Positions 53,195 through 59,213 of a DNA stretch of 64,000 nt are shown one piece after another (the first letter of the stretch is position 1; every line of letters begins with the position of its first letter). A program made the translations under genes and the position numbers. The stretch is taken from NCBI GenBank assembly GCA_964384105.1, contig CAYLJV010000001.1, positions 128,001-192,000 of the forward strand. Reading direction: 5' to 3'. The DNA comes from Candidatus Hadarchaeota archaeon. Its GTDB lineage: Archaea; Hadarchaeota; Hadarchaeia; Hadarchaeales; JAGGTB01. The notes under the pieces are model-generated. The model was not told the DNA's origin and ran no database searches. It saw only the letters and a list, made by a program, of their open reading frames with translations.

Positions 53195-53644
53195 ATGAAG
53201 GGCACATACGTGCTTCTAATCTGTCTTTCGGAATGCGAAAGTATTAAGATCGGGAGCCTTGGGGCCATAAAATTCGAAAAAGGCTGGTACGCTTATGTTG
53301 GTTCTGCCTTAAAATCGTTGGAAAATAGGATCGAGAGGCATATCTGTAGCGAAAAGAGTATTTATTGGCACATAGATTACCTCCTTTCTAGAGCTGAGCT
53401 CGAAAATATTTTCTATGGAGAGGGTGAAGAAAGAAGAGAATGTGGCATTGCGGAGGAGATTTCGAGAGATTTCCCGTTCATTGAAGGATTTGGTTCGAGT
53501 GATTGTCAATGCGAAAGTCATCTTTTTTATTCTAGAGATGTTTCGAAGTTGAGAGATAGTATAGTCTTGGGCTTTATAAGAAATGGATTAAAACCAATTT
53601 CTTGGTACGATGGGAAAGAGATGGCAGCAGAAGAGGAAAAATGA
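53195..53644 (+). CDS. GIY-YIG-like DUF123 protein
   Basis: KGTYVL, YAYVGSA, WHIDYL, GFGSSDC.C.SHL. Confidence 0.88.
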   Translation: MKGTYVLLICLSECESIKIGSLGAIKFEKGWYAYVGSALKSLENRIERHICSEKSIYWHIDYLLSRAELENIFYGEGEERRECGIAEEISRDFPFIEGFGSSDCQCESHLFYSRDVSKLRDSIVLGFIRNGLKPISWYDGKEMAAEEEK

Positions 53645-54221
53645 GCATTTTTACAAGCAAGCTAAAAAAGAAGGCTACAGAAGCAGAGCTACTTATAAAC
53701 TCAAACAACTTGATGACAAATACAGCCTTATTCATCCGGGGGATATAGTTGTAGACCTGGGTGCAGCGCCTGGTAGTTGGCTTCAATTTGCGAGGGATAA
53801 AGTTGGTGAAAATGGGTTTGTTTTGGGTGTTGATCTTGAGGAGATAGAAGATTTGGATTATGAAAACGTTAAAACAGTTCAAGCAGACATTACTGAATCA
53901 GAAACAATAGATATTATTCAGAAAAATCTTCCCGATTCTCCTAATATTATAATTTCGGATGCTGCGCCAAATATCACAGGGATATGGGATGTTGATCACG
54001 CTAGATCGATAGACCTGTGTAGATCTGCTTTGAAAATAGCCGATAAAGTACTGAAACAGGGCGGATTCTTATTAGTTAAGGTTTTCCAGGGTGAATTTTT
54101 CGACGAACTCTTGGAGGATTTTAAAAAGAAATTTAGTTTCTGTAAGGCTTCTAAGCCCAAAGCTTCTAGAAAAAGGAGTTCTGAAATATATATAATTGGT
54201 AAAGGTTTTTCTTCAGGCTAA
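53610..54221 (+). CDS. rlmE: 23S rRNA Um2552 methyltransferase
   Basis: GYRSRA.YKL, DLGAAPGSW, SDAAP, KPKASR..SSE. Confidence 0.95.
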   Translation: MGKRWQQKRKNEHFYKQAKKEGYRSRATYKLKQLDDKYSLIHPGDIVVDLGAAPGSWLQFARDKVGENGFVLGVDLEEIEDLDYENVKTVQADITESETIDIIQKNLPDSPNIIISDAAPNITGIWDVDHARSIDLCRSALKIADKVLKQGGFLLVKVFQGEFFDELLEDFKKKFSFCKASKPKASRKRSSEIYIIGKGFSSG

Positions 54222-54235
54222 TATTCTCGTGATTT

Positions 54236-54676
54236 TTAGTTTCTGTTTTTCTCTATATGGTCTTCGGCTATATCCCCAACTATCGGAAACTTGTAAAGTT
54301 CCCCTTTGTAGGCTTTGATCATCCCGACTACCCAAACTATGAATCCTATAATGCCCAGTATAGCTCCTACGATGGCTCCAAAAATAGGTATAGGACTTAA
54401 AATAGCCCCAACTATGAATAGTCCTAAGAATATGATCGTTGATTGAAAGGCGTGAAATCTAACGAAGTAACTTTTCTCTTCGATGAAGTAAAGAATTATT
54501 CCTGACACAAAAACTAATAGGTAGGCTAGTGCCCCTTCTAGATTTTCTTCAAGGCCTAAAGATGTTTTATTGCTCTTTTTCTGAGTTCTTTTAGTTCTTT
54601 TTAACTCAGCGCCACATTCCGGGCAGAAAGCAGCATTTTCAGGAATTTCCTCTCCACAATCTGGACAATATTTCAT
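54236..54676 (-). CDS. Zn-ribbon + DUF4870-type membrane protein
   Basis: CPDCG/CPECG; VRFHAFQS; YKFPIVG. Confidence 0.8.
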   Translation of the reverse strand: MKYCPDCGEEIPENAAFCPECGAELKRTKRTQKKSNKTSLGLEENLEGALAYLLVFVSGIILYFIEEKSYFVRFHAFQSTIIFLGLFIVGAILSPIPIFGAIVGAILGIIGFIVWVVGMIKAYKGELYKFPIVGDIAEDHIEKNRN

Positions 54677-54743
54677 GACTCATCTAAAATAGCTGTCTTT
54701 TACTTAATAATTCTTTTTCTGCTGGATGAGGTTAATAGAAGCT

Positions 54744-55904
54744 TCATTCAGATATCAATTTTGTCAAACTTTCCATCGTTGCGTCCGTTCTTATCCCATT
54801 GCTTAGAAAATGCGTTCTTGAGGCAAAATAGCCGTTTTTCCTAAGTTTTTGAATAGCATGATTGATCTTAGGTGGGGATGCACCAGATTTTGAGCAAACC
54901 TCATGGAGATCATAGAATATGGGTGGCCCTTCGTTCTCTTTTGCCAAGGTTTCGAGTAGGTTTCTTTCTTCTCCGTATAGTTTGAAGTTTCTTAGGGAGA
55001 GGTCATTTATCAGGGCTTTTATGTGTTCTTTATCTCCCATCTTTTCGAGATATAGTGGGCCCGCTTGTTTGTATTTACCACCACATTCGCAGTTTTCTGG
55101 CAGGTTTGGAAAAAAACCTTTTTTGTAAGTTCTCTTTCCGCATTGAAAACAGTGAGCTAAGTAACCTTGATCTTTCAGAATTCGGTTAGCTTTCCTTGCT
55201 CCTTGGTCAACTTGAAAGTGGATTCTGAAATAGTGTTGAGTAGCATGGCTTAGAAGGGGGATCAGAGCAAGATCAAAAGCTGCTGCTTTTCTTTGTATTG
55301 ATCCAACTAGAATTCTTAGTCCCAGTTCTCTTGAGTAGGGAGTTCTTAGGGGTGTTGAACCGTATTTTCTCTTACATGCGTTTGGATACGCTCCGCATAG
55401 GGGTGCAGTGTCAGTGGCTGTTATCAGAAGGGCACCTCTTCTAGATATTGCAGTGAAGGAAGGCTCTAGGAATGGAATGGGGGTACCAAAAGGGTCAATA
55501 TCTATAATATGGAATCTTGGTCTGTGATTATAGAGTAAAACATTAGCGTCTTCTCTCTTTGCTTCCGCTACGGAGAGTTGATTGTGTTTTATGTTTTTCT
55601 TTATGAATTCGAAGGCATCGGCTGATCTATCATTCACGACTACTTTTTTTACTCCAGAGACCTCTTTTGCATATCTTAGACCTCTAGCACCTATACCAGT
55701 TAGAACATCGCAAATTCTCAGACCATCTATACTCTTTCCGATTACTTGAACGGAAGAAACAGATATATCTCTGGATAGTTCCATTATGGGATTAAAAAAA
55801 ACAGGTGTCTTGGAAGGGACGTACTCTTTTTCAGAAGTTTTGTAGTTTTCTAGTTTTGGTACTTCTAATTTTAATTCTCCTTCTTTGATTATCTCTGTCT
55901 CCAT
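54744..55904 (-). CDS. trm1: tRNA G26 dimethyltransferase
   Basis: VFFNP.M..SRD, G.RGLRY, DIDPFGTP, TATD. Confidence 0.95.
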   Translation of the reverse strand: METEIIKEGELKLEVPKLENYKTSEKEYVPSKTPVFFNPIMELSRDISVSSVQVIGKSIDGLRICDVLTGIGARGLRYAKEVSGVKKVVVNDRSADAFEFIKKNIKHNQLSVAEAKREDANVLLYNHRPRFHIIDIDPFGTPIPFLEPSFTAISRRGALLITATDTAPLCGAYPNACKRKYGSTPLRTPYSRELGLRILVGSIQRKAAAFDLALIPLLSHATQHYFRIHFQVDQGARKANRILKDQGYLAHCFQCGKRTYKKGFFPNLPENCECGGKYKQAGPLYLEKMGDKEHIKALINDLSLRNFKLYGEERNLLETLAKENEGPPIFYDLHEVCSKSGASPPKINHAIQKLRKNGYFASRTHFLSNGIRTDATMESLTKLISE

Positions 55905-55958
55905 TTTATCCTATACAGAGTAGAGTCTCCAGCTTTAACTTGCTTTTGAAAAGATCTT

Positions 55959-56495
55959 CTACATATTTTCAAGTATTAGATTAGCTAACTCCTTTGATAT
56001 CTGATCGCGGTTATTTTTGTTTACCCCAAATATCCTGGCGTCTTTTCTTCTTTTCACTTCTCCTATGAATCCACTCTTTGATCTTTTATGTATGACTCCT
56101 ATGGTGGGTTTTTCAGATTCTAGAGCTTTCTTTACTTGTTTTTTGAACTCTTCACTGTGAACTTCCATCGGTGCTATTTCGTCAATTATTAGGAAGTCCG
56201 CTTCTCTGAGCGCTTTAGGAATTGAGTATTTACAAATTTCGTCAATATTAGAAATATTAACTCTATATTTGCTGATCTTCGGTCCGTTATCTAAATCTAC
56301 GTGCGCTAATATTTTTGATTCGCCGCTAGCTATATCTATAATTTTGAATCCTTTTCTAATTCCGTTAGACTTTATCTCTGGACAGTAAATTCCTCCAGCC
56401 TTCAGATCTTTTTCTTTTAATATTTCCGAAGTCCTTTCGACTACTGTAGTTTTCCCACTGCCTGGTGAACCCGTTATTAAAAAATTGTTTGGAAT
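55959..56495 (-). CDS. NTPase (THEP1/NTPase_1 family); probable ATT start
   Basis: ITGSPGSGKTT, RKGFKI, IIDEIAPME. Confidence 0.88.
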   Translation of the reverse strand: MPNNFLITGSPGSGKTTVVERTSEILKEKDLKAGGIYCPEIKSNGIRKGFKIIDIASGESKILAHVDLDNGPKISKYRVNISNIDEICKYSIPKALREADFLIIDEIAPMEVHSEEFKKQVKKALESEKPTIGVIHKRSKSGFIGEVKRRKDARIFGVNKNNRDQISKELANLILENM

Positions 56496-56664
56496 TCTTT
56501 CACCCTCTCTACGTGTATATTCTCTGCTTTTGCAGTACAACTTTCCGGATTTTAACGTATTAAAATTTCCAAGACTCTATTAGTTTGCAAAGAGATTATC
56601 TAGACAGTAATGTTATGAATTGAGTGTTGACAAATGAAATGTTATATATGCCGGAGGTGTTTCT

Positions 56665-57332
56665 ATAGGACCTAATTTTGTAGCTGGCCTGGACGAGGCG
56701 GGTAGAGAATCAATCCACTGGTAGATGATTCGCCCAAAGGTCCCGTTCTAGGCCCGATGGTTATATGTGGCGTCGTAGTGAGTCCAAAGGTATTCTCTGA
56801 CCTGAGAGCTGAAAGGGTAAGAGACTCTAAGCTGATAGGCCCCAATCGGAGAGAATTCTTAGACGGGTTCCTAAAAGAAAAGATGAAAAAATATGAGATT
56901 GTTGAATATTCTCCATTTGAGATAGATCGACTCAGGGGTGGAGGAACTAACATAAACCAAATAGAAGCAGAAGGTTTTGCCAAGGTACTAAATTTTCTTC
57001 AACCTTCAAAAGCCTACATAGACTCAGCGAGCGCAAATACGGAAAAATTTGCATCTGATATAGCAAATAAGTTAGAGTGCGAAGTTGAACTGATTGTTGA
57101 GCATAAAGCTGATGAAAATTATCTTCCCGTTTCTGCAGCTTCTATTATAGCTAAAGTTAGAAGAGATCAGAGAATCGATGAATTAAAAGAAGAATACGGT
57201 GAAATAGGATCAGGTTATCCTTCTGATGAGCGAACGATAAGATTTTTGGAAAGATGGGTGGATGGGAACAAGAAATTTCCAGATTTTGTGAGAAAATCTT
57301 GGAAAACTGCTCAAAGATTTTTAAATAAGTGA
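56665..57332 (+). CDS. rnhB: Ribonuclease HII, interrupted by a 32-nt intron (56706-56737); start probably ATA at 56665
   Basis: Exon 1 VAGLDEAG(R); exon 2 GPVLGPMV...VRDSK...EHKAD...VSAASIIAKV.RD...GSGYPSD. Confidence 0.88.
56706..56737 (+). other. Putative BHB mRNA intron in rnhB
   Basis: GGGT/GCCC central helix, AGA and AAA bulges, GAATCA/TGATTC inner helix; excision restores AGA GGT in frame. Confidence 0.82.
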
Positions 57333-57338
57333 GTTTTA

Positions 57339-57624
57339 AGACCCCTGTGTTGCCTTTCCTACTAACTCCAAGCTTCCTCGTCTGCCAAACGGCGTCCTCC
57401 ACTTGGTAACCCTCATGGAAGGCTTTTTCAGGGGTCTGCCCATCATGTTTCGTACCCGGGTTGTCTCTCAGTCATCGACTGGTGTCACGCCAAGCACTCC
57501 TGAAAGGACCGCATGGGTACGGTTTGTTTGATGGATACTCAAGTGTTACCTCAGCATTGCTCTGGCGATCATGTTTTCACGCCAGTCCTCGAAGCTGTGG
57601 TTTTAGCCTTTCATCGCAGTTAGT
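57339..57624 (-). ncRNA. Candidate ~285-nt highly structured, pseudoknotted ncRNA
   Basis: GC-rich island with no credible ORF; at least 8 complementary segments; A-rich linkers on the minus strand (strand inferred). Confidence 0.55.
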
Positions 57625-57818
57625 TTTCTGTATTTAACAAGTAAAAAAAGATATCCTTTTTATTATCCTGCTTAATATTTTAGTCTCACTAAAATTTCTA
57701 AAAGGGTTTTTTATATATTTTGGAGTGAATTTGAGCTTTATTTTTATATTTAAGGAGAATAAAGATAACTCAAAAATTTTCAAAATGCTTATAATAATAT
57801 AAATCTTAAAAATATTCA

Positions 57819-59213
57819 ATGTCGAAGGAGAAAGACGGATATAACTCTCCTTATATTCCCAATAACGATGCAGAAATACGCGAGGAGATGCTCCAAGAGA
57901 TCGGAGTGAAGGATGTCGAAGAGCTTTATGCAGATATTCCAGAGAGTTCTAGATTCAGGGGCAAATTGAATATTCCCCCTTCTATGTCCGAATCTGAAGT
58001 AAAAAAACATGTCTCTTCAATTCTATCAAAAAATAGGTCAAATGAAGAAGTAATTAGCTTTTTAGGAGCTGGTTGCTGGCCTCACTATGTTCCAGCACTC
58101 TGCGATGAGGTTAAGGGTAGGTCCGAATTTTTGACGGCCTATGCCGGGGAGACATATTCCGACTTGGGAAAATTTCAAGCTCTGTTTGAATTTCAGAGCA
58201 TGATGGGAGAACTACTCAATTTAGACGCGGTTGGATTAAGCGTATATGACTGGGCTACAGCCTGTGGAGATGCTGCTAGAATGGCTGCAAAGGTCACTGG
58301 GGATAGCGAGATTTTAGTTCCCAGGTTAATTAATCCGGAGAGATTATCTGTCATGAGAAATTACTGTGAGTCATTGGCAGAAGTAAATCTTGTTGATTAT
58401 AGTCCTGAGACCGGTCTTTTGGACCTGGAGGACTTAAAGGAAAAAATATCCGCGGATACAGCTGGTGTTTACATAGAAAATCCTTCTTACTTGGGGTTTA
58501 TTGAAGAAAATGGAAAGGAAATTTCAGAAATTGCCCATGATTATGACGCATTGAGTATTGTGGGAGTGGACCCGATCTCTTTAGGAGTGTTAAGCCCGCC
58601 CGGTGATTATGGTGCAGATATTGTATGTGGGGAAGGTCAACCCCTTGGTATGCACATGAACTATGGTGGGGGTTTAGTAGGAATATTAGCCTGTCGGGAC
58701 GAAGAGAGGATTGTCTCTGCTATGCCGTGTCAGTTGTTAACCATTGCTCCTGAGGCGGAGGGTGATAATTTTGGATTTTCTTGGTGGGCACTACCAGAAC
58801 GGAGTATGTATTTTGAGAGAGCTAAAGTTAAATCGATTGTTGGGAGTTCTACAGCTCTTTGGAGTATAGCTGCTGGAGTTTATTTAGCGCTGGTGGGATC
58901 TGATTTAGACAAACTCGGAGAAACCATAATGCAGAAATCTCATTATGCGAAGCAATTAATCTCCCAGATAGATGGGGTGAGTGTCCCTGTTTTTGAATCA
59001 TCTTACTTCAAGGAATTCACAGTTAATTTTGATAATACAGATAAGAGTGTGAAGGAAGTAAATCAAGAGCTTCTTGATGAGGGAATTCAGGGTGGGAAGG
59101 ATCTATCTGAGGAATTTCCCGAACTTGGAGAGACCGCACTTTACTGTGTTACTGAAATACATGACCAAGAGGAAATCGAAAAACTTGCTCGAACTCTGGA
59201 AGGGGTGTTGTGA
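57819..59213 (+). CDS. gcvPA: Glycine cleavage P-protein-like subunit 1
   Basis: FLGAG.W.HYVPA, QALFEFQS, ENPSYLG, GEGQPLG. Confidence 0.9.
   Translation: MSKEKDGYNSPYIPNNDAEIREEMLQEIGVKDVEELYADIPESSRFRGKLNIPPSMSESEVKKHVSSILSKNRSNEEVISFLGAGCWPHYVPALCDEVKGRSEFLTAYAGETYSDLGKFQALFEFQSMMGELLNLDAVGLSVYDWATACGDAARMAAKVTGDSEILVPRLINPERLSVMRNYCESLAEVNLVDYSPETGLLDLEDLKEKISADTAGVYIENPSYLGFIEENGKEISEIAHDYDALSIVGVDPISLGVLSPPGDYGADIVCGEGQPLGMHMNYGGGLVGILACRDEERIVSAMPCQLLTIAPEAEGDNFGFSWWALPERSMYFERAKVKSIVGSSTALWSIAAGVYLALVGSDLDKLGETIMQKSHYAKQLISQIDGVSVPVFESSYFKEFTVNFDNTDKSVKEVNQELLDEGIQGGKDLSEEFPELGETALYCVTEIHDQEEIEKLARTLEGVL

Follow-up and report, generated by a model that had tools for sequence, protein, structure and literature searches.

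A probable three-motif box H/ACA guide RNA of the Pab40/HgcG type, with every motif closed by a helix, in a Hadarchaeota archaeon

Among archaeal box H/ACA guides, the best match to the RNA described here is the group formed by Pab40, Pf7, Pho40 and Afu4 (Rfam RF00064, HgcG), which share the same three motifs, in the same order and directed at the same 23S rRNA sites as those found here. According to the available text of PMC2377435, motifs 1 and 3 of Pab40 are active in vitro at P. abyssi 2588 and 2016, and position 2678 is the expected site of motif 2 in Pf7 and Afu4, the motif 2 of P. abyssi itself having shifted to 1932. A second described system, sR-h45 of H. volcanii, has two stem-loops, connected through a 56-nt linker that is dispensable, and lacks a counterpart of motif 1; the portions of the report available to us place the site of its SL1 at that of motif 2 and the helix 69 sites of its SL2 at those of motif 3, describe guiding in vivo at the sites matching both motifs, and attribute the modification of two helix 69 uridines to an unpaired UNUN (PMC7075261).

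The RNA considered here lies between two protein-coding genes in a 64,000-nt stretch of DNA (the window) from a Hadarchaeota archaeon (GCA_964384105.1, contig CAYLJV010000001.1, positions 128,001 to 192,000), and an earlier note had read it as an unclassified large non-coding RNA or ribozyme with multiple pseudoknots. We now consider it very probably to be a separately transcribed, three-motif archaeal box H/ACA guide of the Pab40/HgcG type, orthologous to Pab40, Pf7 and Afu4 (Table 1). The order of the motifs and their predicted targets are those of that group, and detection is reciprocal, in that a covariance model built from relatives of this RNA finds the known copies and the known model finds this RNA. 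Whereas sR-h45 has two stem-loops, three motifs are present here. Because the function of such guides is already known, the main result is the correction of an apparent orphan "large ribozyme".

Table 1. Positions of the guide RNA, its parts and its neighbours in the window. Target uridines are predictions in the numbering of the genome's own 23S rRNA.
Feature	Position	Strand	Details
Three-motif box H/ACA guide RNA (~280 bases)	57338..57619	-	probable ends, from conservation and promoter spacing
TATA-like box, putative promoter of the RNA	57642..57649	-	A/T-rich at a fixed upstream distance in 53 homologs
H/ACA motif 1	57544..57600	-	pocket 57593-87 + 57560-57; K-loop upper stem; ACA 57546-44; predicted target 23S U2607
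H/ACA motif 2	57446..57521	-	pocket 57512-07 + 57462-56; K-turn upper stem; ACA 57448-46; predicted target 23S U2697
H/ACA motif 3	57348..57423	-	pocket 57414-07 + 57366-61; K-turn upper stem; ACA 57350-48; predicted target 23S U2036
K-turn closing motif 1, 5' strand	57608..57618	-	3 pairs, 3-nt bulge, GA, 2-3 pairs
K-turn closing motif 1, 3' strand	57536..57543	-	directly behind ACA 1
Closing helix 2, 5' strand	57529..57534	-	pairs with 57445-57440
Closing helix 2, 3' strand	57440..57445	-	directly behind ACA 2
Closing helix 3, 5' strand	57429..57437	-	9 bp with 57347-57339
Closing helix 3, 3' strand	57339..57347	-	directly behind ACA 3
rnhB (RNase HII), convergent neighbour	56757..57332	+	TIGR00729 above cut-off
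gcvPA, divergent neighbour	57819..59213	+	NF001696 above cut-off

Searching the whole window with Rfam at the gathering score returned only three tRNAs and left the RNA itself unmatched. With lax settings, in the Rfam comparison that the earlier note had proposed, the clear best match was HgcG (RF00064), covering the whole model at 25 bits (E 4.6e-5); assignment to a known kind, which the note itself had named as the outcome that would overturn its reading, is therefore what was found. The gathering cut-off of RF00064 lies at 77 bits, and 0 of 61 relatives exceed it; since this cut-off is missed, we refer to the RNA as an ortholog and do not assign it to the curated model itself. R1, a covariance model trained on 21 relatives alone, matched 57 of the 66 genomes of the phylum, nearly always with one copy each (training copies included), which means that the Rfam cut-off misses this guide RNA across a whole phylum. 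Beyond the phylum, 12 outgroup genomes gave nine matches to RF00064 (eight above the cut-off) and nine to R1, at the same locus in seven; R1 missed two Thermococcus copies and added two others. It also matched 33 of 41 genomes taken from another phylum, to which an Archaeoglobales genome belongs and in which the Rfam cut-off misses the guide as well, and a further set of 26 genomes yielded 12 matches, mostly to motif 3 alone.

The fold of the RNA was established from homologs. The region contains 13 perfect helices of at least 6 bp against a mean of 6.7 after shuffling, a count reached by 4 of 200 shuffles, and the numbers of 6- and 7-bp helices both lie above those of the shuffles (4 of 200 reach either). 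Folding z-scores were -2.8 for the minus strand and -3.4 for the plus strand; as both strands fold better than their shuffles, folding alone cannot give the strand. BLAST detected homologs in 23 of 61 genomes, the source genome included, and the 21 full-length copies were aligned with MAFFT, two truncated ones being left out. In this alignment the nested fold is 91.3% paired versus 83.4% after shuffling, and 30 of its 59 pairs show two-sided changes, a level attained by none of 500 shuffles; that count is not a p-value because the structure line is fitted and the sequences are related. The line was redrawn from column support, with two rows (G026 and G044) mis-anchored at motif 2, and is thus partly fitted; a first version had the closing helices out of register (64–69% paired). 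Covariation extends to both stems, lower and upper, in each of the three motifs. The homologs and the covarying nested fold bear out the claim of a structured, roughly 285-nt non-coding RNA encoded on the minus strand.

The specific pairings proposed in the earlier note divide into two groups. All ten complementary segments are present, eight of them perfect and two with one bulged base, and five belong to the covarying nested fold (57339-47/57429-37, 57352-59/57417-23, 57440-45/57529-34, 57451-57/57515-21 and 57562-67/57580-85). The remaining five comprise the local pair 57469-73/57477-81 and four crossing pairs of long range; across the 21 sequences they could not be told from shuffles, either in pairing (62.8% versus 62.1%) or in covariation (0.126 versus 0.125). 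For the pair 57400-05/57540-45 the figures are 81.0% and 81.2%, and one of the five includes bases upstream of the likely RNA start; their probabilities in the RNA's own ensemble are 0.00–0.06. The minimum-energy fold of the single sequence was also considered and set aside: it contains the closing helices and motif 2, and misfolds the lower stem of motif 1 and the upper stem of motif 3, whose ensemble pair probabilities are 0.06 and 0.08. K-turns and G.A pairs are absent from the energy model, so we relied on covariation instead.

Targets were predicted by testing each pocket against all uridines in the 16S and 23S rRNA of this genome, and each pocket had a single best site, a UA with 10–13 flanking pairs. 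Motif 2 is predicted to pair 7+6 bp at U2697, with the ACA box at 14 nt, motif 3 to pair 4+8 bp at U2036 in the loop of helix 69, with the ACA at 16 nt, and motif 1 to pair 4+6 bp around the unpaired UA at U2607, with the ACA at 14 nt; 0, 1 and 11 of 500 shuffled pockets, respectively, were as good, counts that flatter the pockets because their limits were chosen after viewing the data. The predicted equivalents are P. abyssi 2588 for motif 1, P. abyssi 2678 or H. volcanii 2605 for motif 2, and P. abyssi 2016 for motif 3, and the targets are spaced 571 and 90 nt apart, compared with 572 and 90 nt for P. abyssi 2016, 2588 and 2678. In E. coli we take the equivalents to be positions ~2496, 2586 and 1915 (motifs 1, 2 and 3), matched by sequence context; the E. 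coli 23S copy used for comparison is 2721 nt long and provides such context, not standard numbers. An initial guess at the motif 2 pocket (57529-22 with 57450-42) would pair 9+5 bp at 23S U650 around three unpaired bases, and was rejected because the guide would then include the ACA box and the closing helix, and because its left strand is not conserved.

The architecture of the motifs agrees for the most part with published rules. ANA boxes are in place in 53, 53 and 46 of 53 homologs for motifs 1, 2 and 3, and the ACA of motif 2 stands at 14 nt in all 53. Reading of sequence and alignment places the tandem G.A K-turn or K-loop 10 layers above the pocket in motif 1 and 9 layers above it in motifs 2 and 3. 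The available text of PMC7075261 gives 9–10 layers as usual, which all three motifs fit, and a stricter 10-layer rule, as worded in the accessible part of PMC4652768, is followed by motif 1 only. Motif 3, at 16 nt, falls outside the ACA-distance rule of 14–15 nt contained in the same part of that paper and in the available text of PMC2377435, and the text on H. volcanii SL2 describes a stem-loop that works at an ACA distance like that of motif 3 (PMC7075261). Pab40-type copies have GUUA and 14 nt to the ACA at this position, whereas motif 3 here has GUUAGU and 16 nt. It is possible, judging from complementarity, that a two-base slide would also let motif 3 reach U2038, in a second register of 4+6 bp with the ACA at 14 nt; the right arm of this register has at least 4 pairs in 20 of 22 genomes, with 0 in G029 and 3 in G061. 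As motif 3 can pair the second U, it resembles the single-site "1940 guide" variant of sR-h45, as far as that variant is described in the available text (PMC7075261), unless the sliding register is used.

Pairing between guide and rRNA could be followed in relatives through 30 loci with pieces of 23S rRNA, 25 of them from genomes with a guide sequence in the set. Motif 3 pairs 4 plus 6–10 bp in all 22 genomes in which the site was found, and motif 2 pairs 5–7 plus 4–6 bp in 23 of 23. The target sites are highly conserved, so it is the changes that carry the weight. Helix 69 has undergone an A-to-G change in G029 and G061, which belong to different orders, and the pocket of motif 3 answers it with U-to-C; next to the motif 1 site, an A-to-C change shared by the congeneric G012 and G018 is answered by U-to-G, and this same rRNA change in G014 is a counter-case, being uncompensated. 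Motif 1 is the weakest of the three, often pairing 3+6 bp around three unpaired bases in relatives and pairing poorly in family f2, and in the 23S copy of G012 its target U is itself replaced. Within the source genus, G003, G005 and G006 (loci L007, L004 and L006) have intact motifs 2 and 3 but a motif 1 whose pocket and ACA box look decayed.

The 23S sequences gathered for this comparison have features of their own. Loci L202-L208 and L210 (genomes G027, G037, G025, G036, G009, G013, G023 and G035) carry insertions of ~220–800 nt that interrupt the motif 1 target within its 3' arm, so that full pairing with the guide would come about only after splicing. The short insertion in L204 resembles a group I intron family below its cut-off (37.2 of 50 bits, E 7.8e-7), and the long one in L206 matched no family. 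In nine relatives (L184, L188, L193, L194, L196, L197, L205, L206 and L207) a second site, immediately 3' to the target of motif 3 and just behind helix 69, also contains an insertion, and is likely to hold another rRNA intron. Several 23S copies (L183, contigs C41 and C63 of G004, and also copies in G036 and G045) are only 68–76% like the main one, and are probably foreign contigs in the bins.

The most distinctive feature of the RNA is the closure of its motifs. In textbook H/ACA motifs the ACA box is single-stranded. In the Thermococci and Archaeoglobales copies that we compared, the hairpins are separated by short linkers with no closing helix, whereas here every motif is closed: the strand right behind each ACA pairs with one that precedes the lower stem by a few nucleotides, which leaves the ACA box in an internal loop. 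The junction stretches are accordingly ~20 nt longer, with a median of 33 nt versus 13–15 nt, a comparison in which some rows are mis-anchored (7 of 45 short values at the first junction within the order, and a few very long ones outside it). Motif 1 is closed by a K-turn to which the 5' end of the RNA contributes, with AUGA in 52 and CNNGA in 50 of 53 homologs, its helices 1 and 2 being paired in 92% and 100% of cells. Two-sided changes were counted for each closure in an alignment fitted to the covariance model; they occur in 5 of 5 modelled pairs of closing helix 2 and in 6 of 8 pairs of closing helix 3, which is at least 6 bp long in 43 of 46 testable homologs of the order.

Variants of these closures were found in several lineages. 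Six more copies (L164-L169), all from family f2, lack an ANA box in motif 3, and their closure runs on into the lower stem with a small loop between the two; G061, from another order, keeps only the closing K-turn, as read by eye. Closure of motif 3 was seen in 0 of 7 Thermococci copies. The idea that closures are confined to the RNA's own lineage had nevertheless to be rejected, as motif 3 is also closed in copies from the phylum of G072: among 24 testable copies the closure comprises 8–11 bp in three and 4 bp in five, another 5 of the 29 being untestable for want of an anchor. Neither the closures nor this RNA were found described in the open-access passages and listings consulted, and published figures or supplementary files on Pab40, Afu4 and sR-h45 may show flanking pairings. 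As to the role of the closing helices, we infer that they most likely insulate three GC-rich domains against mispairing and guard the ends of the RNA.

Cbf5, Nop10 and L7Ae are encoded in the genome, each above its cut-off. Gar1 was not found in this 90% complete genome with Pfam, with tblastn (best E 0.13) or with a lineage profile (best 7.7 bits) built from the proteins of 18 relatives, against which four held-out relatives score 95–101 bits. Gar1 was found in none of the seven genomes of the genus (G000-G006), compared with 23 of 24 other relatives; as the genus genomes are 65–91% complete, its loss is likely but not established. The available text of PMC6138745 reports that the pseudouridine corresponding to motif 1 is lost in vivo in T. 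kodakarensis without Gar1, a dependence that makes the missing Gar1 count against full activity here. Basal guided activity of Cbf5 and Nop10 in vitro without Gar1 is described in the accessible part of PMC1865073.

By analogy with the known family, on which our view of protein binding and catalysis is modelled, the RNA would be transcribed from its own promoter and would fold into three separate domains. L7Ae would bind the apical K-turns and K-loop as well as the terminal K-turn, and Cbf5–Nop10 would dock at the ACA box and lower stem of every motif. The pockets would capture 23S rRNA around an unpaired U, which Cbf5 would convert to pseudouridine at U2607 and U2697, both in the peptidyl-transferase region, and at U2036, in the loop of helix 69 (own numbering). 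A bolder proposal is that closed H/ACA RNAs form a distinct, recurring architecture in which closure holds the lower stem on Cbf5 and makes the ACA box dispensable, and that the genus runs a Gar1-free particle on core ribosomal sites; we put this forward tentatively and regard it as rather unlikely to hold as a whole. The variants without an ACA box (family f2), or apparently without Gar1 (the source genus), bear on the need for both parts.

The pseudoknotted reading, whether as a large non-coding RNA, a new class of ribozyme or a permuted RNase P RNA, draws on the crossing segments that do exist in one sequence and on the absence of an Rfam match at cut-off here. We consider it extremely improbable, since the crossing helices show no covariation and have pair probabilities of 0.00–0.04 in the RNA's own ensemble, and the invariant stretches left unpaired are explained as rRNA-complementary pockets and boxes; the apparent pseudoknots are chance complementarity. 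The likeness to RNase P RNA (RF00373) consists of two short words, with neither the CR-I to CR-V set and P4 pseudoknot of that RNA nor a match even at E 10. One of the words, GAUGAAAGG, supplies the 5' strand for the K-turn closing motif 1, and the other, GAGGAAGCU, corresponds to the K-turn plus upper stem of motif 3. The earlier note had itself decided against RNase P, correctly, as a normal RNase P RNA is encoded on another contig of the genome (G000:C3:148469-148758, 219.8 bits). This RNA and the 23S rRNA of the genome are both of archaeal type. Another non-guide reading would make the plus strand a cis-regulatory leader of gcvPA, similar to a glycine riboswitch. The region does lie upstream of that gene and folds as well on the plus strand as on the minus strand, but no riboswitch matched even at E 10, and promoter, boxes, G-U pairs and K-turns are all read on the minus strand. 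Moreover, gcvPA adjoins the RNA in 0 of 36 other loci, which makes the RNA independent of gcv, and the probability that we leave to a leader is vanishingly small.

Other explanations accept an H/ACA origin. The RNA might be partly or wholly inactive as a guide in this genus, acting as an rRNA-binding chaperone or decaying, as the distribution of Gar1, the low score of the Gar1 profile in this genome and the decayed look of motif 1 in three genus members would suggest. We judge this improbable: all pockets, ACA boxes and K-turns are intact here, Cbf5, Nop10 and L7Ae are kept, Cbf5 with Nop10 has the basal activity noted above, and the incompleteness of the genus genomes softens the case for Gar1 loss. 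Alternatively, the AUGA of the 5' strand and the CUUGA that follows ACA 1 could be true C/D boxes of a composite guide that also directs 2'-O-methylation. These C/D-like strands enclose motif 1 and are conserved to the extent given above, and eukaryotic composite C/D–H/ACA scaRNAs show similar nesting. A box C/D guide would carry an antisense element of 10-21 nt upstream of box D, but here the 20 nt before the D-like word match the genome's own rRNA over 7 nt at most, and are taken up by the lower stem and ACA box. The D-like word itself is free to vary at two positions and no C'/D' pair was seen, and we hold a composite guide to be very improbable. An H/ACA guide of the Pab40/HgcG type thus remains the preferred reading.

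The surroundings of the gene were also examined. The minus-strand promoter proposed in the earlier note holds up, in that 53 homologs share an A/T box spanning -27 to -23 (A+T fraction 0.8–1.0); a sigma-70 promoter scan was set aside as unsuited to an archaeon. Contigs from four RNA libraries, from four studies, map within 57344-57607 and give no strand, ends or level; one of them spans 264 nt at 57344-57607 with 2 differences. They were retrieved by searching with the RNA stretch and uncovered flanks were given no weight, and we treat them as a weak hint of expression only. An 81-aa minus-strand ORF (57157-57402) overlaps motif 3 and is antisense to rnhB, and is taken as spurious. The convergent rnhB adjoins the RNA in 17 of 36 other loci as well. 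In the window, it belongs to a cluster of RNA-handling genes beside the guide (53610-57332), which comprises an RlmE-like 23S methyltransferase, Trm1 and RNase HII. Elsewhere in the genome, contigs C1, C3, C6, C8 and C12 together carry at least 8 full-length TFB matches (54–70% identity) in addition to partial ones, a large expansion.
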